Source: a virus. From it: a stretch of DNA of 64,000 bases. Shown piece by piece: positions 44,901 through 55,921 of this stretch (within the stretch, counting starts at the first letter, position 1; the number at the start of each line of letters is the position of its first letter). Below the pieces are notes generated by a model. The model was not told the DNA's origin and made no database searches. It saw only the letters and a list, made by a program, of their open reading frames with translations. Location: IMG/VR virus record IMGVR_UViG_3300015259_000001. One strand, 5' to 3'. A program made the translations under genes and the position numbers.

Positions 44901-45082
44901 TTATCTTTAGGTAATAAGGTAGATATTGCAGAGGCAAGTTGCCCCTGTAATTCTCCGGTCATTGGAACTTCTACTTCATCAGTAGATTTGGGATTGATTA
45001 AGTCATCAACCCTTCTAGCTACCTCGTCAGAAGTGGGGGCTACCCATACATAGGTATTATCAGACTGACGATGGAATGACAC
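41906..45082 (-). CDS. Three-module glycosyltransferase GT2-GT4-GT4
   Basis: VDIVMPVYN/VDDAS/LLNSD; GGMKFI...YGMPCLEAMASG; GGPTTI...EGLGRMALEAMS. Confidence 0.9.
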   Translation of the reverse strand: MSFHRQSDNTYVWVAPTSDEVARRVDDLINPKSTDEVEVPMTGELQGQLASAISTLLPKDNFFQNSKETLYNAAINVASKERYPVDIVMPVYNSIHIADKAIKTVLSRTRWPYKLIIVDDASDYKTKEVLKDLYEKHPDKIILVTNAKNKGFAASVNRGITIGRGKYVCLLNSDVLVTQDWLTKLVFALEANSRNQIVNPVTNNTAVINVNMSPGASYLDMNRILQNRGDVKYPEIMPTGFCYMFRRSLLSEIGPFDESYPNFGEESDHWMKTITYRRGPTVKGYRAVMADDTYVFHERGSSFSSLGEEKHMGFRKHAANRFNRIWPQFTQWKKTFHIDKSLGHIKNDISSSILNSSRKVPYRVCWVVRSAAFCGGMKFITDIVNEINERGGDARVAVVARDIRAKLPEPLGELRTGVINFASEEEFLKTFTSKVFKNGVIISSTSELAPLVSSLCEVEKKLKHVLHTQSYEPDLVGADSTTAEEFKRFFKLAPQVISSSHWITKKLIEDGVNVVSTVAPGVDRKLFYPGNRESGDDRVTVMVPISASYPFKGYDRAIQLIQYLYNKSVKAGLNTRIMTYGVDSIPEVCGTAIALGPISQTRLANLLRNEVDVFIDPSYIHSYGMPCLEAMASGVPVICWDNKGIGEYVRHGKNGLKLPNSMPPIEVADSVIALLQNPEQRAKLQKSALESLEEHDRDNSVNTFIEALEKNLHLRQTKRRIVFVTPHMRKHGGPTTILTLANGLADRGHDVSITSVYADVTPEVLGFTDLPISLEHKDIPECDVLIVNSDNPLNDYFSELPQAKKKIMLKLSHNERFKEYEEKSLNIKWDKIITSTEWLANVCRNPLPTWNNKPSDATRIGWFHYGHEVFQTIPSQKVYRTGRVDGPVRICTLIHQYPLKGSGDAIQALTKIKEKFGDMVKIEGVGEYPKDKLLMPPWIKYHESLSRQHMADLFKNTDIWVGVSHTEGLGRMALEAMSACVACVLTDVHTEFTEHEKNCLLVPISRPDMIFSSIDSLIIEPSKMVRLGFEGYRTAERYVDSTECIDSLERVVEELCGS

Positions 45083-45623
45083 TGGAATTCTTTCCCAAGA
45101 TAATAGAATCTATTACCAAGAATACAGAAGGTAATTCTCCTGTTTTAGCTATAATATCGTATTCAAACGAATAGTTATCTAGTGAGCTTTCGCTGCTATG
45201 CGTATCCGCAGATACCATATCTGATCTTTTCATCCTAATTATTTTACCACCTAGACTTTCAATAGCTTTTACTTCGTTAGGAAATCTGGTATCACTAATA
45301 ACTACATTATTACCTTTAGCTATCTCTTCTTTAATGGTTTCAAACCCTATACGAACCCAAAAATCATCCATAAAGTTTGTTCGAAAAAGATCAGTACCTA
45401 CCACCTGTAGAACTTCTCTAGGGGACATTTCCCATCTAGGATCTACTATTTCTTTCTCAATAGGATCATACATTTGTGCATGTGTAAAACGAAATAGTAG
45501 TTTACCTATTATTTCTTTAAGTGGGTATGCCCAAGATACCTCTACGAATCCGTGCTTCTCAACTAAGTAGGTCGCTACACTGGACTTACCAGAGAGCTTC
45601 TTACCTGACAATGATATAATCAT
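45060..45623 (-). CDS. Deoxynucleoside monophosphate kinase
   Basis: ISLSGKKLSGKS, SPREVLQVVGTD, ISDTRFPNE, HSSE. Confidence 0.9.
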   Translation of the reverse strand: MIISLSGKKLSGKSSVATYLVEKHGFVEVSWAYPLKEIIGKLLFRFTHAQMYDPIEKEIVDPRWEMSPREVLQVVGTDLFRTNFMDDFWVRIGFETIKEEIAKGNNVVISDTRFPNEVKAIESLGGKIIRMKRSDMVSADTHSSESSLDNYSFEYDIIAKTGELPSVFLVIDSIILGKNSSVIPSSV

Positions 45624-45973
45624 TATATCTTACCATCAAGAACATTCAATGCCGTATTAGCATCCTTTCGGTGACCCTCATCACATGCATAATCGAAATT
45701 ACAAACAAAGTTGGAAGCCCATTCTGGAAGAGTCCTTACTGCCTTATAAAGTGTACTAGAGAAGTGGGAGATATCTAATAGTTCTGGGTAGTGCGAATAA
45801 GAACTCCCGTCTACAGCGTACCCTGTAGCATCCGCTAGAGGACAGTTAATAGAATCACACTTATACGTTTTTCCACCGTTCCAAATCGTTTTGACCAGAT
45901 AGGCACGAAACTCAGACTTCTTAATAAATGGTCCCGGTTTTTCTATATTTAACTTTTTCATGGTGTCTCCCAT
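45623..45973 (-). CDS. Hypothetical protein, tandem paralog 2
   Basis: NCPLADATGYAVDGSSYSHY...TLPEWA. Confidence 0.7.
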   Translation of the reverse strand: MGDTMKKLNIEKPGPFIKKSEFRAYLVKTIWNGGKTYKCDSINCPLADATGYAVDGSSYSHYPELLDISHFSSTLYKAVRTLPEWASNFVCNFDYACDEGHRKDANTALNVLDGKI

Positions 45974-46350
45974 TCTCCTGTTTCGTCATTACGTCTAATT
46001 TTATTATCTATAATAAGCAATGCAGTCTTCGCATTCTTTGGAAATACTTTACCACTATAGAAAGCATCTCCAGTTACTGCATCAAATACGGTAACAAACT
46101 TTTGAGCCCAGTCCGGAAGTGTTTTAACTATTCCTTTTAAATAAATACTATGATGATTTTCTAGTAGCTCAGAATAATGAGAATATGAGATTCCATCTGT
46201 AGCGTAACCTGTAGCTATAGCTAATGGACAGTTTTCAAGTGTACATTTATATGTTTCGTTTGTCTTAATAGCCTTCAATAGAAATTGTCTAAACATATAT
46301 TTAGAAATAAACTTACCAACTGGTGAAATATCATTCTTAAGTCTTCTCAC
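45958..46350 (-). CDS. Hypothetical protein, tandem paralog 1
   Basis: NCPLAIATGYATDGISYSHY...TLPDWA. Confidence 0.7.
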   Translation of the reverse strand: MRRLKNDISPVGKFISKYMFRQFLLKAIKTNETYKCTLENCPLAIATGYATDGISYSHYSELLENHHSIYLKGIVKTLPDWAQKFVTVFDAVTGDAFYSGKVFPKNAKTALLIIDNKIRRNDETGEWETP

Positions 46351-47689
46351 GATACTGCTCCGTGTTTAAGTGAAATTTTAAGTCTGGGTACTTATACGAC
46401 AATAACAGTATAGCATATTTTCGCAATTTTTCCGCTTCTTCCTTAGAGTCACACACAGGTAAATAGATTGTAGGACGCCATTTACCTGATTCTTTATGGA
46501 CGCCAGATTTAGTAGAATTTCTTACATTTTGTATAATAGTACATGCTCGCAAATTATTCAAGTTGTTATTTAACTTATCATGATCAATATGATCTACAAC
46601 ATAACCAGATTTAATTGGTCCATTAAATGCTTCCCATACAACTCTAGATACTTGCTTCCAATAGTATCTACCTGAATTAGATAACCCCACCTGATAATAT
46701 CCACTATTAGATAGTTTAAACTTAATAGACTGTCCGGGGATAGTCCTTCCTTTATTGTCTTTTCTAGTTAAAGACCGTATTCGTCCAAAAGAACTAGCTT
46801 CATATTGCTCTTCGAACCCTAATACCGGACCCCACATTTCAACATCATTTAGTCCACTTACTGCCCGTCCTTTTAATAGTAACCAATCCATTTCGGGTCT
46901 TACTTCTAGATTTTTAATCCATGACCCAACACTAGTAGCTGGATATACACCATTATGGACAGAAAAGTCTAAGTAGGCAGATAAGTCTTTCGGAAAACAC
47001 GACCCAGAAAAACCATATTTACCGTCCGTACCGGGGACTAAAAAGTGCGAACGTCCTATTCTCCCATCATTCAAGATTTCAGCTATAACTCGTTTAGAAT
47101 TAACTCCAATAGCTTCGCAGATCTGGTGTAGCTCATTAAAGTAAGCTAACTTATTGCAAAAAAAAACATTAGTCCCATATTTAACTAAAGCAGCTTCATC
47201 CCATGTCATCCATACTATAGGAACAGCAGGAAATCTAGTATTGAATAAATCTTCTAAAATTCTATGGCTAGAAAAGTTATCGGATGTACCAAGAATTATC
47301 CGACTTTGTTGAATAAAATCAAGATCAGCAGTTTTTTCTGTTAGGAACTCCGGCGAATGTATTACTATTAGATTTCTGTGTTTTGCATTCAACTTTCTCG
47401 CGCTTCCGGGAGGTATAGTGCTTTTTATGATAACAATCTTTACATCATCCTCCGGCAAGGTACGTGATAAATCACTTAAAGCGCTATCTAAAATAGATAG
47501 ATCTACTGATCCGTCAGCCTTCATTGGGGTAGGTAAACAAATAAATAGTATATCTTGATTAACTACGTCAGCGTATTTAAACCCCATATCCTTGAATTTG
47601 TCATAGATCTTTACATTTGTATAGGTATGGAATGCTTTGCATACGGCGGTCCCTACGAAACCCGCGCCGATTATACCTACTGAGTACAT
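46337..47689 (-). CDS. ugd: UDP-glucose/GDP-mannose dehydrogenase fused in frame to a NUMOD4-HNH endonuclease; start reassigned to ATG 47689
   Basis: GAGFVG, ICLPTP, IKSTIPPG, SPEFL, GFSGSCFPKD; then YEASSFGRIRS...VVDHIDHDKLNNNLNNL after about 46855. Confidence 0.85.
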   Translation of the reverse strand: MYSVGIIGAGFVGTAVCKAFHTYTNVKIYDKFKDMGFKYADVVNQDILFICLPTPMKADGSVDLSILDSALSDLSRTLPEDDVKIVIIKSTIPPGSARKLNAKHRNLIVIHSPEFLTEKTADLDFIQQSRIILGTSDNFSSHRILEDLFNTRFPAVPIVWMTWDEAALVKYGTNVFFCNKLAYFNELHQICEAIGVNSKRVIAEILNDGRIGRSHFLVPGTDGKYGFSGSCFPKDLSAYLDFSVHNGVYPATSVGSWIKNLEVRPEMDWLLLKGRAVSGLNDVEMWGPVLGFEEQYEASSFGRIRSLTRKDNKGRTIPGQSIKFKLSNSGYYQVGLSNSGRYYWKQVSRVVWEAFNGPIKSGYVVDHIDHDKLNNNLNNLRACTIIQNVRNSTKSGVHKESGKWRPTIYLPVCDSKEEAEKLRKYAILLLSYKYPDLKFHLNTEQYREKT

Positions 47690-48321
47690 ATACTTCTCCA
47701 TTCCAATGCATCCGATATAGTTGGAAACTCCTCAGTAAAGATATTTTTTATCTCTAAGGCTATTTCTCTATGTTCTTTTTGGGTGTGGGGGTCAGTACGA
47801 AGCTCTATATAATGAATCCAAGATCTTAAACTACCTTTCATGTATATCGTAGTTTGAGTAGTTAATGGCAGTACCATTCTTGCTGTCTCTTTGGATACAC
47901 CATTAGCGATTAGCTGGTCATAGGTATATCGGGCAAGAGATACCGTAATAGCAATCATTTTATTTAGAGTATCATCTTTAAGTACAGCCTCGGAAGACTG
48001 TCTATTATTTTTAGCCTGTCTACGAAGCTCTACTGGTTCAAAATTCGTAGGAGAACTATAGCGTTGTGAGAACTCTTGGAATGAAAAGCTTCTATGACGT
48101 AGAATCTGGGCTGCTATAGCTCTACTAGTTTGGATCTCTACGGTCATATCGACCATTTCAAACGGCGACCAATGCTTATTTTTGATCAAGTATTTTAATA
48201 GTTTAGGTGCCGTTTCAGTATTCATCTGATTATCTGGATTGCTTACCCGAGCAATATAAGCCACCAGATCCTCAGTCCGTGAAAGAAAAGATTTAGTGGT
48301 GGATATGATTCTGACGTTCAC
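47677..48321 (-). CDS. thyX: Flavin-dependent thymidylate synthase
   Basis: HWSPFE, RHRSFSFQEFSQRY, ARMVLP, QKEHR. Confidence 0.95.
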   Translation of the reverse strand: MNVRIISTTKSFLSRTEDLVAYIARVSNPDNQMNTETAPKLLKYLIKNKHWSPFEMVDMTVEIQTSRAIAAQILRHRSFSFQEFSQRYSSPTNFEPVELRRQAKNNRQSSEAVLKDDTLNKMIAITVSLARYTYDQLIANGVSKETARMVLPLTTQTTIYMKGSLRSWIHYIELRTDPHTQKEHREIALEIKNIFTEEFPTISDALEWRSICTQ

Positions 48322-48761
48322 TTCTTATCCGCCTCTAAATGTGCTCTAAGAAACCATGCCATCTTCTCATGTTTAGCTGCCCACTCTAGAAGAATATTAG
48401 CGGTTACAGAATCCTGAGTGTTTACAGCAGCAGAAGTTCTCCTAATATCCTTAATTAAATCTTCATGATCCATCACTAAATGATTTATCATATCAGTATA
48501 GTTAAATGGTACAGTAGTATCTTCATATAGCGTACCTGTAGATATAAATTGCTGCATAGACCCGAACGGTTGACCTTTAAGCTGTCTAATTCTCTCAGCT
48601 ATGGTATCGGTTAGAGAGTTCAATTGATTGTACTGATCACCGAATAGTTCATGCAGTGGACCAAAGAATGGTCCTGTTACGTTCCAATGGAACCCACGGG
48701 TCTTTACTAATACTTTGTACTCATCTGCTAATAGTATATTTAGTGCTCTATTTATATCCAT
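48318..48761 (-). CDS. dps: Dps/ferritin-like DNA protection protein
   Basis: FHWNVTGPFFGPLHELF, DTIAERI, HEKMAWFL. Confidence 0.92.
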   Translation of the reverse strand: MDINRALNILLADEYKVLVKTRGFHWNVTGPFFGPLHELFGDQYNQLNSLTDTIAERIRQLKGQPFGSMQQFISTGTLYEDTTVPFNYTDMINHLVMDHEDLIKDIRRTSAAVNTQDSVTANILLEWAAKHEKMAWFLRAHLEADKK

Positions 48762-48874
48762 AATTTATCCTATATTAATATGTTTGAATCTACTTCACAA
48801 TGATAGTTTTATTATGCATAGCTACAAAAATAAATAAAGCTATAGCCACAATAAATGATAGTATAAGAAGAGGT

Positions 48875-49207
48875 CTATCTAACACAAGAATATCCCGCCC
48901 AATTACATAGAATTGATGACCAATTAGGTCTAGGACGTAAAGCATTAATAGCGAGTATTGTTTTTTTCAGATTACGCCAATTAATCTTTGCCCCACAGAA
49001 TGGGCAAAAATTATACTTTGTTGCCATACCAGAACGACCATCGAGAAGCGATCTCATATCTTTATGAGATCTAGTATCCCCTATTAGCTCCTCGATGCAC
49101 CATGACTTTCCGTCACCCTCTAATACAGTATGGTCACAGTCAGAATTGGTAGCGGGGGCGGGACTCGAACCCGCGTTCTGAAGCTTATGAGACTTCCGAC
49201 TTACCAC
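48875..49207 (-). CDS. Possible Zn-ribbon protein whose 5' end overlaps the tRNA
   Basis: CDH...WC...FCPFCGAKINW; GTG start lies inside the tRNA; same frame as RNR. Confidence 0.4.
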   Translation of the reverse strand: MVSRKSHKLQNAGSSPAPATNSDCDHTVLEGDGKSWCIEELIGDTRSHKDMRSLLDGRSGMATKYNFCPFCGAKINWRNLKKTILAINALRPRPNWSSILCNWAGYSCVR

Positions 49208-49221
49208 TTGTCCACCCCGCT
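49147..49221 (-). tRNA. tRNA with CAT anticodon (Met; initiator-like acceptor, non-initiator anticodon stem), CCA encoded
   Basis: AGCGGGG/CCCCGCT acceptor, GAAGT-CTCATAA-GCTTC, GCGGG-TTCGAGT-CCCGC, ACCA. Confidence 0.92.
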
Positions 49222-50809
49222 AGGATCCACACACGCCACCTTTACAGGACTCGTCATTTTCCTCGTATATGACGTCTTTATGTTTTTTCGCTGTTTCATA
49301 GTTTATAGGTACTATAGGCTGGCCCGGTCTTGCTCCATCCGGATACACCGTGATACCTCGTAGCTTCGGAAGATATTGTAGCAAAGTTTCAGCAAATTTC
49401 TTGGCATTGTTGTTACCGGGTTCGCCCCATTCCGGCAAGTTAATAGTAGAAGAGATCGCTTGATCTACGAAACCCTGAACAAAAGCCTGCATTGCTATTC
49501 GCTTCTCAACATCTAAGGATAAGGTCTTCGAGTCTTCAATATCCTCTGGTTTTATTCCTTCCTGAATTAGACGCTCTGCTGTTGGGTCTATAACATAACT
49601 AAACTTCCACTTTCCATCCTTATCAAGAAAGCGTCTCTTATAAGATACACAAAAAATGGGTTCAATCCCTGTAGTAGTCTCGCCAATGATACCTATCGTC
49701 CCTGTAGGAGCTATAGCTCTAACCGCAACAGGACGAATGTCTTTGCTAGCAGTGGCGTACGTATTGGCCTCGGTATCTGAAGCATACATCCATGCTGATA
49801 ACCATTTTTCAAGCTTATTACTGGGGGCGTAAGGATGATTATTCTTTAAGCACCACTCATGCAGTCCCATTAACCCCAATCCTATACGGCGGTTATTAGA
49901 ACGCACCCTAGAGAAAGCAGGATCAGGAGCCCAACTACAATAGGTTCCATTATATAGGAACTGGACACCTAACTCTGTAACCTTAACCAATTCATCTATA
50001 TCTTTAATGTTAGCAAGGTTAACACTACCAAGATTACAAGAATCACTGTCAGTATTGGATACAACCTCACAGCAAGGATTTCTAAGATCCTCTTTCCATT
50101 TAGACCCTACATTAACAGAAAATCCCGGCTCACCTGTCTTGCACATGCTCTTACAAATTCTATAGTAAAGGTCCCAAACATGTTTTTCAGTATTAACTGT
50201 GGCAAAGAAAGCATCATCTAACCCTACTGAAATATTTGTCATATCCAGATCAGCCGGGAAATTGAAGTCTGCCTCTTTTGCTGCTTTAACAGCAGTGGCC
50301 CAATTCTTAACTAATAAGAATTCTTCTATATCGGAATGCATCCAATTTAGACCCGCCCACAGGGCAGAACGTCTTTTGCCTCCAGCCATTACCTGACGGG
50401 CCACTTCATTGACCATTTTCATCAGGGAGATAGGACCACTGGCGACACCTCCAAATCTTTTAATCGGAGTGCCTCGTCCACGGATTAGGCTATACTCAGT
50501 ACCTACCCCGCCGCCAGTGGATAATGCCATTATATGTTTCCCTACTAGGTCTTTCCAACCCTCTCTTGAGTCTTCGGCTCTAAGTAGAAAACAATTATAG
50601 TATTGAGGTATATCTCTACCGGCGGAATAAAGATACCGTCCACCGGGTATGAACTTCCTGTCTCTAATGATCTCAAAAAATGCCTGTTCTTGTTCAGGAT
50701 TTCTAGCAATAGTCTTAGCTACTCTAGCAGCGCATCCTTCCCAATCTTCAGACTCGTTTATCGCATATGTGCGTTTAAATATTGTATTAGCGAATGGACC
50801 AAGCATCAT
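49220..50809 (-). CDS. nrdJ: Ribonucleotide reductase, class II (B12) type inferred
   Basis: PGGR, YNCF, GGGVG, RRSA, NPCCE, CNLGS, APTGT, C-terminal CKGGVC; no ATP cone, no YY dyad and no nrdB in window. Confidence 0.85.
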   Translation of the reverse strand: MMLGPFANTIFKRTYAINESEDWEGCAARVAKTIARNPEQEQAFFEIIRDRKFIPGGRYLYSAGRDIPQYYNCFLLRAEDSREGWKDLVGKHIMALSTGGGVGTEYSLIRGRGTPIKRFGGVASGPISLMKMVNEVARQVMAGGKRRSALWAGLNWMHSDIEEFLLVKNWATAVKAAKEADFNFPADLDMTNISVGLDDAFFATVNTEKHVWDLYYRICKSMCKTGEPGFSVNVGSKWKEDLRNPCCEVVSNTDSDSCNLGSVNLANIKDIDELVKVTELGVQFLYNGTYCSWAPDPAFSRVRSNNRRIGLGLMGLHEWCLKNNHPYAPSNKLEKWLSAWMYASDTEANTYATASKDIRPVAVRAIAPTGTIGIIGETTTGIEPIFCVSYKRRFLDKDGKWKFSYVIDPTAERLIQEGIKPEDIEDSKTLSLDVEKRIAMQAFVQGFVDQAISSTINLPEWGEPGNNNAKKFAETLLQYLPKLRGITVYPDGARPGQPIVPINYETAKKHKDVIYEENDESCKGGVCGS

Positions 50810-50834
50810 GTAACTTTCTTTATTCTATTTTACC

Positions 50835-51518
50835 TTAGTCACGGAAAAACTCTGGTTCTATATCCATAGCTTTTGCCCAAGAACCATGCTTAACTGCTAC
50901 TATTACTCGCTTTAACCTTATTCCCCTACTCCACCAATGGGTTGAAATTTCCTTATGTCCACCCTCAATATTTCGGGAATTAGATATAGCATCTAAAGAA
51001 CGGCCATCCATGAGATGTCTACAAATACCGTCTCTGCCTTCCATTTTATTATCAAATTCAGAAACAACTTCTAAACCTAATCGCGCAGCCGCCTCTCTCA
51101 TACGATCAGCCTGTGCTGTTAGCTCATTAAACTTTTCTTCGATGTGATACTCTCTCAAAGGATATCGACCGGCACCCTTAGGAGTATACCAAATATTCGG
51201 TCGAGATTCAAGATGTTTTACCATCCAATTAATCGCCTTATCAAGATCAGAGAAACAATCGTTAACAGATCGCCGCTGATAATCAATCTCGTGATGGAAA
51301 CCATGAAGTTCGGCGATCATTCTACCGGCCTTAACTTCTTCCTTGACGTACTCAATACACTGAGGAAACTGTTGAATCTCCTCCGTGAGAATAGCTGGAA
51401 CATGTACGAAGTGCTCCGGCACTTCTGCGATCCAACGGTGTATCTGTCTAAATCGTTTAAACGGATCAGGCCATTCTCTAGAAGGAACTAGAATATCATC
51501 GTCTCTAACTCTTATCAT
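50835..51518 (-). CDS. Polysaccharide deacetylase-like (CE4/NodB fold) protein
   Basis: IRVRDDD, HVPAI, ELHGFHH, YTP. Confidence 0.6.
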   Translation of the reverse strand: MIRVRDDDILVPSREWPDPFKRFRQIHRWIAEVPEHFVHVPAILTEEIQQFPQCIEYVKEEVKAGRMIAELHGFHHEIDYQRRSVNDCFSDLDKAINWMVKHLESRPNIWYTPKGAGRYPLREYHIEEKFNELTAQADRMREAAARLGLEVVSEFDNKMEGRDGICRHLMDGRSLDAISNSRNIEGGHKEISTHWWSRGIRLKRVIVAVKHGSWAKAMDIEPEFFRD

Positions 51519-51756
51519 TATCTACTGCCTTCTCAACACAACTTATATGAGCATAAGTACATAATTCCATTATAATCATATACATCTGCATCGTATCAAT
51601 AGCTTCCCTACAAAAACAACACTTATGATCCTCAGGAAGCATACCTGAACCGCCGTATATCGGATCAAAAGGATTGAAGCCGTAATAGGCAGCAAACTCT
51701 ATGTACTCAGAATTAATCATTAGTATAGATAACGTTAGGTTCTGAGTACGGGACAA
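51505..51756 (-). CDS. Small Cys/His-rich hypothetical protein
   Basis: CCFC...AHISC. Confidence 0.45.
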   Translation of the reverse strand: MSRTQNLTLSILMINSEYIEFAAYYGFNPFDPIYGGSGMLPEDHKCCFCREAIDTMQMYMIIMELCTYAHISCVEKAVDNDKS

Positions 51757-51807
51757 AAATAAATAATGCTGCTATCCAGACTAATACCAATGCTAGATTA
51801 ATATATC

Positions 51808-52614
51808 TCATGGCATAACTTCGCACTTAATAGTACCGTCCTTATTCAATCGTAAAACGGACCAACCAGTTCTTTGTATACTCATTACACCTTTTCTAGC
51901 ATAATTAGAGTATCTTAGAGAACTGCCGCCGCGTACAAACCATTGAATTCTTAGGTGCTCTCCATGACCATCGAAAGATAACGAATCAACTGGCTTAGTG
52001 TATAGTTGGTGGTTATGACCTAAGAAGAATACATCTGCTTGAGAATATACTTCTTTTAACTTATATAATTCTAGATCTCCATTCTTAGCTGAAGATACAC
52101 CATGACCAGAGGCTAAAAGCATATTATTCTTTTTATGCTTGTTCTTATTAGCTACGATATTAGCATAGCAGGGACCGTCAACAAAAGGTACATCTAGCGT
52201 TCTAGCTAATATCTTAATAACATCAAAGTCACAAAGTCTAGCTGAACGGTCAGAGTCATGATTTCCGCCCCGCATGAATAAGCATTTATCTGCGATAGGT
52301 AGTAGTAATTCCGCTGCTTCAATAAACTGATCATCAGGGTAATTATACTGTTCTCTTTGAGTAATCCCCTTGTATGCGGGAGGTATAAACTCTAATAGAT
52401 CTCCATTACCGAACCAGTAAGCATTAGGGGTATTTTTAACTGTTTCGATCTTTGCAGCGAACATAGATCTATCGTGTTCATTGGCCCCAACGTGATCGTC
52501 TGTGAACCCATGGATCTCAAAAGAATCATGAGGTAAACTTATCTTCAACCCGTTAGATGGAGTTACCATAGTAAATTTATTCTTTATCATTTGTTTTCTC
52601 TTTCCATAGTGCAA
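51808..52614 (-). CDS. Calcineurin-like metallophosphoesterase
   Basis: FTDDHVG, GNGDL, GGNHD, ASGHG, GHNH. Confidence 0.85.
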   Translation of the reverse strand: MHYGKRKQMIKNKFTMVTPSNGLKISLPHDSFEIHGFTDDHVGANEHDRSMFAAKIETVKNTPNAYWFGNGDLLEFIPPAYKGITQREQYNYPDDQFIEAAELLLPIADKCLFMRGGNHDSDRSARLCDFDVIKILARTLDVPFVDGPCYANIVANKNKHKKNNMLLASGHGVSSAKNGDLELYKLKEVYSQADVFFLGHNHQLYTKPVDSLSFDGHGEHLRIQWFVRGGSSLRYSNYARKGVMSIQRTGWSVLRLNKDGTIKCEVMP

Positions 52615-52939
52615 GGAACTCTTGAAAGTTCATTGTTATCATAGTACAGTCTGTGCCTTTACCGTGAGGCTGCCATACTACAGCAGGCGTAGTATCTTTT
52701 TTTGCGTTTGCTTTAGCTTGCTTATACTCTGCATGACCCGGATGTTTTCTAGTATGCTTACATTCAACAGAAAATGGAAACTTACGTTTAGCGGCCGGTG
52801 ATAGCATGATATCTACACCACCAGAACCCATAGGTCTACTCTCTACGTCTCCCTCTTCAAGCTCAAAAATACGACCTAACTCACTAGCAACAAATTTCTG
52901 AGTAGAACGACCTTTAGCTTTTGCACTAGCGGTTTTCAT
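52577..52939 (-). CDS. PD-(D/E)xK Holliday-junction resolvase-like nuclease
   Basis: AKAKGR, SRPMGSGGVDI, SVECK. Confidence 0.75.
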   Translation of the reverse strand: MKTASAKAKGRSTQKFVASELGRIFELEEGDVESRPMGSGGVDIMLSPAAKRKFPFSVECKHTRKHPGHAEYKQAKANAKKDTTPAVVWQPHGKGTDCTMITMNFQEFLALWKEKTNDKE

Positions 52940-53150
52940 CTGTAGCCCACCTATATGCTCCTACTAAGTCTATAGCTATAAAGAGCAATCCCCAAACAAC
53001 GATAGAAGATAGACCCAAAACGAACCCTAGTCCTACCCAACCTAATTCTCCGATTACTCTTAACCACCATCCTACTCTCAATCCGAAAGCAATACATATC
53101 ATACCGGCTAACAGGAAAGCATAGAAGATATGACCGTATACATCAATCAT
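52926..53150 (-). CDS. Small 3-TM protein, PnuC-like half
   Basis: Three hydrophobic segments, GWWL..GELGW, GAYRW. Confidence 0.5.
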   Translation of the reverse strand: MIDVYGHIFYAFLLAGMICIAFGLRVGWWLRVIGELGWVGLGFVLGLSSIVVWGLLFIAIDLVGAYRWATDENR

Positions 53151-53446
53151 ACACGCTTAGAAGATTTCTTAGACTTCTTCTTTGCCTGTACAGCGCGATC
53201 AAGTCTAATATGAGCTTGATCTGCTACTGCAGCGATATCGTCTAGTTTAACATTAATACCGCTAACTTCAGAATCAAGACCTAGGATATGGGTATCGAGT
53301 ACTTTTAGATCAGCAAGTATGTTTACACGAAATTTTTCTAAATAAACAGACTCTGCATCTACTTGAGCTATTAACTCATTTACGGTGCTATAAAAGAACA
53401 AAATAGCAATAACAAATACAATTAGAATCATAACAAGTGTCATCAT
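53147..53446 (-). CDS. N-terminal TM plus coiled-coil protein
   Basis: 99 aa. Confidence 0.55.
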   Translation of the reverse strand: MMTLVMILIVFVIAILFFYSTVNELIAQVDAESVYLEKFRVNILADLKVLDTHILGLDSEVSGINVKLDDIAAVADQAHIRLDRAVQAKKKSKKSSKRV

Positions 53447-54102
53447 ATCCTCCTTAGTATATCATCTGCCAAGCCTTCTGCCACAATCGCTTCACCACCA
53501 AGAACCCAATATTCTGCTTTCTTATCGGTAATCTTTCTCCAGTAGGAAGCATCCTTATCCCCCTTGCGTTTAGAGGTACACTTACCTAACAGGACTATAA
53601 ATCTTTCCCCTATCCAGTCTTCCCACTTTCGTCGATCCTTAGCTTCTGAATGACGAAGGGCTACTTCCCCGGAGAAAGTTGATTCGTGATTCATCATAGT
53701 ACAGTTTTCAGTAACATATACTTTATGCCCGCAAGCTAGCATAAGAACACCCGCTGAAGCTACTCCACCTGTACCTATAATAGTTATCGGGGCTGGAGAA
53801 TTGATAACCAAATCATAGAACATAAAGGCTGCCTCAACATCACCGCCCGGTGTACTAAGCCAAATAGTTATAGGTTCATGGCTTTGGTTAAGTAGATGTC
53901 TAAAGGTCGCCAAGAACTGATTGGCGAAGTCTCCATCTATTTCTCCTACGATATAGATCTCTCTCTTATCGAGGTCTACCCAAAACTCATGGATCCAATA
54001 GAGAGCAGGAGCATTAATCGGAGGATTATTAGCTCCTATATAAACATTACCTCCTGTGGTGTTGTTATTTGATCGTGGTGATACCATTATTCTTCTCCAC
54101 AT
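53443..54102 (-). CDS. clpP: ClpP-family peptidase
   Basis: REIYIVGEI, STPGG, VASAG (Ser), MNHE (His), GLAD. Confidence 0.85.
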   Translation of the reverse strand: MWRRIMVSPRSNNNTTGGNVYIGANNPPINAPALYWIHEFWVDLDKREIYIVGEIDGDFANQFLATFRHLLNQSHEPITIWLSTPGGDVEAAFMFYDLVINSPAPITIIGTGGVASAGVLMLACGHKVYVTENCTMMNHESTFSGEVALRHSEAKDRRKWEDWIGERFIVLLGKCTSKRKGDKDASYWRKITDKKAEYWVLGGEAIVAEGLADDILRRI

Positions 54103-55921
54103 GTATATTCGTCGGAATTAATGTTTTTAGAGATTCTTCGTTAGAAATGAGCAAAATAGTCTCTCGTCTGCTCGATATTCCTGTCAGGTAGTTTATCAAA
54201 TTTTCAGCATTCCGTTGGTCTAAAGATACGAAAGGTTCATCAAGAATAAGGATTTTACTTATACCCACAGCTTGACTCTCAGCCAAATCTGCAAGGGCTA
54301 GACCTACAGCAAATGAGACTATCTGTTGCTCTCCGCCGCTGAGAGAATCGTAACCCTTGCCTCCACTATTAGAACTTACTTCACAAGTAAATTCATCCCT
54401 ATCTTCTCCTGACTTAAGTTGTTTGGTAGTACTGAATGTAACCTTTAATTGAGAGTTACCAAGCCCTTCCAAATGTTTATTAACTCTTTCCGTTAAGAAA
54501 GGACAAACTCTATCTAGCATGAATATCTTTAAATCCTTACCAAATGCCCCTTGCCAGAACACTAGTTTATCCCGCTCCTGAATAAGAAGGGATAGAGAAG
54601 TTTGCTTAGCCTTTAATTTGTCTTCCTCCAATGATAATTCCTGCTCTAGTTGTCGGACAGAAGACACGAAAGGATTTAGATCAGCATTAAGACGATCTAG
54701 TTCTGCCTTCCATACGGGTCGAGAATCTTCTCCTAATTGCTCTTTGGTCTTGAGAATGCTAGATTGTATATTTGCCCGTTTCGTAATTATGTTATGTTTA
54801 TGGACTGAATTTTCAAGTAGTTTATTGTATTCGGCAAAAGCTGTAATGTGTTTATTGTTCCAATACTCTTTAGCAGTTTCAGCTTTATTAAGGTTTACTT
54901 TTGCTGTATCTAATTTATCCTTAGATCTACAAAGGTTAACTTCATAGGAAGTATAGACAGCATCAGGAAACTTTTGACCACAAAGGTTACAGGTATTAGG
55001 AGGTTGTTCCATTATGACACGATTATGTAGTCTTATCTCTTCATTCCACTGATTATGTGAAGTTACAGCTTTATCATAATTAGCTTTATATTCCTTTACC
55101 CTCGCTATAACAGACTCTATATCTACATCATCATAACTAGGTATAACTAATTCTTTTAAACTAACTTCAAGATTATCAATAGTATCTAAAATACTCTTAT
55201 GGCATTGTTCGTAATTTAGAATGTTTCTTTTAATGCTGCTAATCTTTAATTGGTTTTCTGCTTCCCACGTAGATATCTTCCTAGTTTGTACCTCGTAGTT
55301 TGTCTTAATCCTATTGATGCCTCCCTCAAGGAACGATATAGACTTCTCTTCAGCTTGAATATTCAGGTTAATCGTAGCCTTAAATGTGGCGGATAACACT
55401 TCCCATTTGCTTACTTGAGAAATTGGCAATATTCGTTCTAGTATTGCCTTCTGATCCTTAGGATTGAGGGATAGGAAATTATCGTCTCTGCCTTGTCCAA
55501 AGAAATCCGAATAAACAAATGTCTCATAATTTCGACCTAATGCCCGATTGATTAGCTCTTGAGTCTCTTTCTCATTACGCTGTGTTAATCTTTCCGTACC
55601 GCAATGAAGTTCTAAAGAGGACGGTTTTCTACTGCGTTTAACAATATAATCTTTTCCATCAGAACCTTGAAATGTAATCTCTACAAAGCAAGGTGGAGCG
55701 GTATGGCGATTAACTACTTCATCTGCCCTAAGTCCTCCTGCGGTCTGACCAAATAAACACCACAGTATAGCTTTATTAGCGAGCGAACTTTTCCCTGCTC
55801 CGTTAGCCCCACCTTCATCGGCAGAATACCCGGTAACAAGAACAAGTCCTCTATTATGCAAAGGTACCTGTACCTCTCCCAGAGAGAAAACATTGCTTGC
55901 GCTGAGATTTAAAATTCTCAA
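54065..55921 (-). CDS. sbcC: SbcC/Rad50/gp46-like ATPase
   Basis: GANGAGKSS, central coiled coil with CxxC hook, LSGGEQQ, LDEPF. Confidence 0.9.
   Translation of the reverse strand: MRILNLSASNVFSLGEVQVPLHNRGLVLVTGYSADEGGANGAGKSSLANKAILWCLFGQTAGGLRADEVVNRHTAPPCFVEITFQGSDGKDYIVKRSRKPSSLELHCGTERLTQRNEKETQELINRALGRNYETFVYSDFFGQGRDDNFLSLNPKDQKAILERILPISQVSKWEVLSATFKATINLNIQAEEKSISFLEGGINRIKTNYEVQTRKISTWEAENQLKISSIKRNILNYEQCHKSILDTIDNLEVSLKELVIPSYDDVDIESVIARVKEYKANYDKAVTSHNQWNEEIRLHNRVIMEQPPNTCNLCGQKFPDAVYTSYEVNLCRSKDKLDTAKVNLNKAETAKEYWNNKHITAFAEYNKLLENSVHKHNIITKRANIQSSILKTKEQLGEDSRPVWKAELDRLNADLNPFVSSVRQLEQELSLEEDKLKAKQTSLSLLIQERDKLVFWQGAFGKDLKIFMLDRVCPFLTERVNKHLEGLGNSQLKVTFSTTKQLKSGEDRDEFTCEVSSNSGGKGYDSLSGGEQQIVSFAVGLALADLAESQAVGISKILILDEPFVSLDQRNAENLINYLTGISSRRETILLISNEESLKTLIPTNIHVEKNNGITTIK

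Follow-up and report, generated by a model that had tools for sequence, protein, structure and literature searches.

Bacterial initiator tRNA (tRNA-fMet) is characterized by A11:U24, the fMet discriminator in the D stem (PMC1635315), together with a mismatch at position 1:72 and three consecutive G:C pairs at positions 29-31 of the anticodon stem (3GC). The determinants for formylase are G2:C71, C3:G70, G4:C69 and A73, and MetRS recognises the anticodon (PMC9976931). In Escherichia coli, the middle G:C pair of the three is enough for initiation, and the au/GC/gu and cg/GC/cg stems are viable but less fit; the mutants listed in the same study lack the exact au/GC/ug stem (PMC5389676). Exceptions in nature are the unconventional initiators of mycoplasmas and alpha-proteobacteria, of which the stems are au/GC/GC, GC/GC/gu and au/GC/gu (PMC5389676). 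As for position 1:72, an overexpressed tRNA-fMet with A1-U72 sustains the growth of E. coli, and formylase tolerates a weak pair at this position (PMC5393177). Mutation to U1:A72 gives a tRNA that is formylated and works poorly in elongation, and E. coli can live on dual-function mutants of tRNA-fMet (PMC6265465).

The anticodon arm of tRNA-fMet is also a site of attack, as enteric VapC cuts the tRNA between A38 and C39 (PMC4105405). Van den Berg et al. put forward a hypothesis on toxin-resistant phage tRNAs (PMC10264068), and an inverted stem pair was found to shield a tRNA-Lys from AriB (PMC11464382). Phages have been reported to avoid, in general, encoding the target of VapC-LT2 (PMC10264068). 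The papers searched that deal with phage tRNAs and VapC did not describe an initiator class of the kind presented below, and in both of them fMet was taken to be lacking in the phages under study (PMC10264068, PMC12482277).

A phage gene for an initiator-type tRNA-Met

The window, namely the whole stretch of 64,000 nucleotides analyzed here, belongs to a virus record of 121,061 bases (IMGVR_UViG_3300015259_000001), and contigs matching it were found in freshwater-sediment runs. The features of the locus are as follows.

49147..49221, minus strand: tRNA gene with a CAU anticodon, an initiator (fMet)-type body and CCA encoded (ARAGORN, Rfam, fold, profiles)
49215..49221, minus strand: 5' strand of the acceptor stem; A1 is 49221, followed by G2, C3 and G4-G7 (sequence, ORF end)
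49147..49157, minus strand: 3' strand of the acceptor stem; U72 is 49151, discriminator A73 is 49150, followed by CCA (sequence, fold)
49198..49212, minus strand: D arm with a 3-bp stem (G10:C25, A11:U24, C12:G23) plus A13·A22 (sequence, profiles, orthologs)
49180..49196, minus strand: anticodon arm with A29:U41, G30:C40 and U31·G39; the anticodon is 49187-49189 and G39 is 49184 (sequence, survey, orthologs)
49220..50809, minus strand: ribonucleotide reductase (RNR) gene upstream of the tRNA (ORF; context, outside the tRNA)

ARAGORN called tRNA-Met(CAT) at 49147-49221 on the minus strand, the same segment matched the tRNA family RF00005 of Rfam with 66.7 bits (E 2.5e-12; cut-off 29), and its minimum-free-energy fold is a full cloverleaf of -27.2 kcal/mol, of which z is only -1.45 against shuffles. 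The three lines of evidence agree with the initial annotation in placing a CAU tRNA here, and each base named in that annotation is present. The acceptor stem reads A1:U72, G2:C71, C3:G70 and G4:C69 with A73 and CCA in the DNA, and the D stem contains A11:U24 and C12:G23. The anticodon stem, GAAGU/GCUUC, comprises G27:C43, A28:U42, A29:U41, G30:C40 and U31·G39, and closes the loop CUCAUAA. No letter differed between the tRNA region of the window and the contigs of two DNA runs, which are possibly the source samples, and the same arm was found in independent relatives (see below). Assembly error is thus ruled out, and 49147-49221 is a real phage gene for an initiator-type methionine tRNA.

The genome encodes seven tRNAs, namely Ile(UAU), Arg(UCU), Leu(CAA), Thr(UGU), Lys(UUU), Asn(GUU) and the CAU tRNA, the last being the sole one with this anticodon in the 121 kb. 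The tRNA-Ile (G000 956-1031; L371) bears an encoded UAU anticodon and U38, and bypasses lysidine. That the host is bacterial follows from other products of the genome, among which are a family A polymerase, two sigma-70 proteins, an RF-1-domain protein and an RNA ligase; an archaeal host was considered and rejected on account of the sigma-70 factors and the family A polymerase.

Initiator identity of the body

We compared the tRNA with position profiles built from cellular CAU tRNAs (108 fMet, 15 elongator Met and 18 Ile2), with resampling to equal set sizes; as the control tRNAs are small in number and were assigned to their classes by published rules, the profiles serve as a check, not as a substitute for tRNAscan-SE or TFAM. 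In addition, a single initiator-like-body pattern was run on viral and cellular collections, and the counts of this survey are among the matches listed (120 each), in which the distinct tRNAs numbered 119 on the viral and 107 on the cellular side. The survey pattern fixes G2, C3, G4 and A11 by design, and the viral contigs may include host tRNAs.

The fMet profile won in all of the 200 equal-size resamplings. The whole tRNA scored 48.4 bits on the fMet profile, 37.6 on elongator Met and 15.4 on Ile2, and the body without the arm 50.3, 32.6 and 7.7 bits, respectively. Most of the fMet signal came, in agreement with PMC1635315, from A11, U24 and G9, which were found in cellular fMet but in 0/33 of the elongator Met and Ile2 controls. 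The anticodon arm alone fell below zero on the fMet profile and scored slightly best on Ile2, being a good fit to no class. The best identity of the tRNA to a cellular fMet was 0.79 over the standard columns and 0.86 without the anticodon arm.

The tRNA shares G2:C71, C3:G70, G4:C69, A73, A11:U24, G30:C40 and the loop CUCAUAA with tRNA-fMet of E. coli (metZWV, metY). Neither the pyrimidine 11:purine 24 (usually with G1) of elongator tRNA-Met nor the features of tRNA-Ile2 (a pair other than C3:G70, C11:G24 and frequently C4:G69/C5:G68) were found in it. On the other hand, it differs from bacterial tRNA-fMet in bearing A1:U72 in place of C1xA72 and AU/GC/UG (A29:U41 and U31·G39) in place of three G:C pairs, both of which were seen in 0/107 cellular controls, and C12:G23 with A13·A22, where G12:C23 was conserved in 107/107 of those controls (among the matches listed). 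Departing from tRNA-fMet in three textbook features (the 1:72 mismatch, 3GC and G12:C23), the tRNA is classed as a phage variant, not as a canonical tRNA-fMet.

The initiator-type body recognized in the initial annotation is thus upheld by A11:U24 and G9, but not by the acceptor-stem pairs also cited there. The four formylase determinants are all present, and yet they are common to many elongator Met tRNAs; every cellular control of the elongator Met class has C3:G70, and 67% of them have G4. Furthermore, an elongator Met of Streptomyces (L408) possesses A1:U72 and the same pairs from 2:71 to 4:69, so that the acceptor stem by itself is no proof of initiator identity. Altogether, we consider it probable that the gene encodes a functional initiator-type tRNA-Met.

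Orthologs in related phages

No cultured relative was found by megablast of positions 45000-55000 against phage records. A CAU tRNA occupies the corresponding interval in the phages of which the RNR is 87% and 81% identical to that of the window, whereas no tRNA was found in this interval in the relatives with RNR identity of 70-75%. Among the three orthologs near RNR, 6/20 pairs were changed on both sides and 98% of the cells pair, and these compensatory changes indicate that selection maintains the gene as a tRNA. No variation was seen in the D stem, in pairs 29-31 or in the anticodon loop, implying that the AU/GC/UG arm predates this genome; CCA, A73 and the T loop were likewise intact and conserved, as was G30:C40. 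The stems of the CAU tRNA are under purifying selection across the relatives.

Position 1:72 varied among the orthologs. L253 has A1:U72, a bulged acceptor stem and a tRNA located 145 bases from the RNR stop, and L255 has U1:A72, suggesting that position 1:72 needs only a weak pair. The idea that A1 is dictated by the overlap with the RNR TAG was rejected, as L253 keeps A1:U72 away from the stop. Acceptor stems bulged by one base were seen more widely, in about 12/119 viral initiator-type tRNAs (e.g., L052, L070, L109, L003 and L253) and 0/107 cellular ones among the matches listed.

Anticodon arm in viral and cellular tRNAs

Among the matches listed, the full 3GC was retained in only 19/119 viral initiator bodies in comparison with 80/107 cellular ones, while G30 was kept in 114/119 and 107/107, respectively. 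An altered 31:39 pair was found in 53/119 viral tRNAs and 1/107 cellular tRNA, and Watson-Crick 1:72 pairs of any kind in 34/119 and 4/107 (among the matches listed). G39 occurred in 39/119 viral tRNAs (p 6e-13, with rows that are not phylogenetically independent), U31·G39 in 20/119, the AU/GC/UG arm in six and A1:U72 in five, as opposed to 0/107 cellular tRNAs in each case, among the matches listed. Where C39 was lost in the viral initiators listed, 39 of the 51 cases changed to G with a matching change at 31. As for elongators, A31·G39 or C31:G39 was found in some cellular elongator Met tRNAs.

A scan on the anticodon arm alone detected the same arm in at least 119 viral contigs. In the 116 distinct viral tRNAs among the matches listed, G1:C72 was present in three and G2:C71 in 91, C3:G70 was found in most, and the combination of the arm and A1:U72 was seen in seven, being less common but not unique. 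Of the loci holding another CAU tRNA beside the arm-bearing one, 23/26 had a separate G1-type elongator (among the matches listed). The arm is found in cultured phages as well; E. coli phage phi92 and Klebsiella phage phi1_175008 have AU/GC/UG, Vibrio phage phi-ST2 and Synechococcus phage S-PM2 have GC/GC/UG, and Salmonella phage PMBT37 combines A1:U72 with AU/GC/UU. The CAU tRNAs of these five phages combine a body having A11:U24 with a third pair that is remodelled, as does the tRNA of the window, but are annotated only as tRNA-Met and vary in 1:72 and the loop bases. The rarity implied in the initial annotation is therefore not borne out, since this variant is common among phages, and the arm of the window tRNA is one member of a widespread phage class. 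In the tree of 60-column tRNA bodies, of which the resolution is too low for origins to be counted, G39 clustered with 24 state changes against 33.8 expected. Part of the G39 frequency is thus inheritance, and the number of changes, about 24 on this low-resolution tree, points to repeated gain or loss.

The absence of 3GC claimed previously is accurate for the first and third pairs, which are replaced by A29:U41 and U31·G39, but not for the middle pair. G30:C40, the pair sufficient for E. coli, is retained, and we do not regard the feature as lost. The mycoplasma and alpha-proteobacterial initiators resemble the phage tRNA in the middle G:C pair, an A:U first pair and a wobble at the third. 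Nevertheless, the phage wobble is inverted with the pyrimidine on the 5' side (U31·G39), and breaks the pattern of three purine:pyrimidine pairs kept in those variants. The change of the first pair is found in bacteria too, but that of the third only in phages in our data.

A1:U72 was also put forward as an archaeal/eukaryotic trait of a hybrid tRNA. The pair is present and common to the archaeal/eukaryotic initiators, but these retain the three G:C pairs (PMC5389676), which the phage tRNA does not, and neither an archaeal nor a eukaryotic system was found here; the genome encodes bacterial sigma-70, the close relative L255 has U1:A72, Watson-Crick 1:72 pairs are frequent in the viral tRNAs listed and an A1-U72 tRNA-fMet is viable in E. 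coli. The CAU tRNA gene is not an archaeal-bacterial hybrid.

In the literature searched, the coverage of which was incomplete, no phage initiator was found to be described with A1:U72 or with a changed 31:39 pair. The single gene is unremarkable beside many phage look-alikes, and more interest attaches to the class, which adds to the exceptions to 3GC known from nature and marks the sites under selection in the initiator tRNAs of phages, with G30 kept and position 39 changed to G. Being annotated as plain tRNA-Met, phage initiators appear to be under-recognised.

Two further variants were noted. One is a recurring phage initiator-type subfamily in which the D arm is reshaped (GACUGGAG...CCAGC), A11:U24 is not formed in register and U31·G39 is nearly always present (L001:5509-5584, L039:3346-3422, L056:4009-4083, L097:1307-1383 and L123). 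The other is in PMBT37 (L431:2500-2574 and 2754-2827), where two CAU tRNAs have U37 (loop UUCAUUA) and U31·U39, and a third, elongator-like CAU tRNA is adjacent. A U·U third pair was seen in the survey of initiator bodies as well.

Possible function and alternative explanations

The best reading of the sequence is that the window tRNA would be a working, perhaps less efficient, initiator, with some use as an elongator possible. Host RNase P would cut the tRNA out of the RNR transcript, host MetRS would charge it via CAU and A73, and the easily opened A1:U72 would permit formylation. G30:C40 would give the tRNA entry to the P site, and the initiator pool of the host would be supplemented during infection. 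The weak Watson-Crick pair at 1:72 may let an unformylated share serve elongation too.

The initial annotation proposed a nuclease-resistant tRNA, and it is a reasonable inference that the window tRNA may dodge host tRNA-cutting toxins, as the altered position 39 borders the A38/C39 cut of enteric VapC, G39 is strongly enriched in phages and most losses of C39 in the viral initiators listed lead to G. G at 39 would remove the recognition site of host enzymes inactivating tRNA-fMet at the junction of the anticodon stem and loop, of which VapC is one example, and G30:C40, the pair required by the ribosome, would be kept despite the change. The T5 tRNA-Lys resisting PARIS is similar in bearing anticodon-stem changes beside a known nuclease site, but the resistance has been demonstrated for that tRNA-Lys and for no fMet (PMC11464382), and is hypothetical for the window tRNA. 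Some findings disagree with an explanation by VapC only. U31·G39 is also frequent among the phage tRNAs for Leu, Val and Ile (57 cases, 51 with A35), which lie outside a VapC-type specificity for fMet, and G39 is partly inherited and present in some cellular elongators. From these patterns, the chance that U31·G39 reflects escape from some anticodon-arm enzyme of the host seems close to even, if slightly short of it. More tentatively, many unrelated phages, that of the window included, might carry a class of initiators keeping only G30:C40, with G at 39, that resists fMet-destroying host toxins and sustains the translation starts of the phage after the host pool is cut. As phi92, cultured on E. 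coli, has the same arm, the escape from fMet toxins is testable in laboratory strains. The phi92-type tRNAs also call into question the avoidance of the VapC-LT2 target by phages (PMC10264068).

Alternatively, the tRNA may be an initiator of which the stem change is unrelated to toxins, reflecting weaker constraint on an auxiliary gene copy or a general preference, structural or in decoding, among the A35-bearing tRNAs of phages. Most stem positions are divergent in viral tRNAs, U31·G39 tracks A35 across isotypes, and G39 clusters on the tree, all of which fit this explanation. However, drift from G:C should yield transitions, while the changes at 39 were largely C-to-G transversions matched at 31 (39/51 among the matches listed), the 31:39 pair was invariant across the orthologs in which neighbouring pairs changed, and the state changes on the low-resolution tree suggest repeated gain or loss. 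We regard this alternative as possible but rather doubtful. In the non-CAU phage tRNAs (L013-L132, L259-L370), U31·G39 was observed in 19/51 Leu(UAG), 11/19 Leu(CAA), 9/47 Val(UAC) and 7/47 Ile(GAU); A35 accompanied it in 51/57 viral cases, and 1/125 cellular non-CAU tRNAs had U31·G39.

A single tRNA-Met serves both starts and internal codons in mitochondria. Likewise, the paired 1:72 could admit EF-Tu, and the window tRNA, as the sole CAU tRNA of the genome, could read internal AUG in addition to or instead of starts. The bases A1 and U72 do pair, the profile for elongator Met came second and not far off, a tRNA of phage BUCTxx99 with A1:U72 and A11:U24 scores as an elongator, and dual-function mutants of tRNA-fMet sustain E. 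coli (PMC6265465). A dual or mainly elongator role is nonetheless unlikely, given that A11:U24 and G9 were in none of the 33 elongator Met and Ile2 controls, that the arm-bearing phages usually have a separate elongator-type CAU tRNA and that U1:A72, as seen in the ortholog L255, makes a poor elongator (PMC6265465).

It is improbable that, instead of acting on the ribosome, the RNA is a decoy titrating a host enzyme that targets fMet, or a processing signal behind RNR; the gene shares sequence with the stop codon of RNR and with the region where the next ORF starts, and is missing at this position in more distant relatives, but the parts of a functional tRNA (CCA, A73, T loop, G30:C40 and anticodon loop) are intact and conserved, and the tRNA of L253 stands clear of the stop codon. 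Finally, an Ile2 identity, in which host TilS would convert C34 to lysidine for reading AUA, was left open in the initial annotation and now appears very improbable: AUA is frequent (620 of the 25,239 codons in the genome, against 558 internal AUG) and the arm alone leans to Ile2, but AUA is already read by the tRNA-Ile(UAU) of the phage, the whole-tRNA score is far below that for fMet, C3:G70, A11:U24 and U72 were in 0/18 Ile2 controls (3:70 being circular, as the class was assigned by that rule) and G4:C69/G5:C68 is inverted with respect to C4:G69/C5:G68, the determinants for TilS of E. coli (PMC1635315).

Transcription and neighbouring genes

The TAG stop of RNR (window 49220-49222, minus strand) shares its last two bases with tRNA positions 1-2, its A being position 1 (A1) and its G position 2 (G2). 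No promoter above chance was found near the CAU tRNA, and hence RNR and the tRNA are probably on one shared transcript. Two metatranscriptomes gave no evidence of transcription, containing only short pieces of the region and one 30-base match to the 3' half of the tRNA flanked by unrelated letters. If RNase P cuts at tRNA position 1, the RNR message would be left without a stop codon and end in U. The genome encodes an RF-1-domain protein (G000 110671-111042; PF00472), which could be a candidate rescuer of ribosomes on the stop-less RNR message. The RNA ligase (G000 113121-114035; L374; PF09414) is a candidate tRNA-repair enzyme.

On the 3' side of the tRNA, there is a Cys-rich ORF at 48875-49207 (minus strand), resembling the ORF behind the L255 tRNA (L255:3279-3602) with 36% over 90 aa. 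It lacks ATG and the first residues, and the sole upstream start is a GTG within the D loop of the tRNA. This ORF may have been cut short, or its translation may run through the tRNA.
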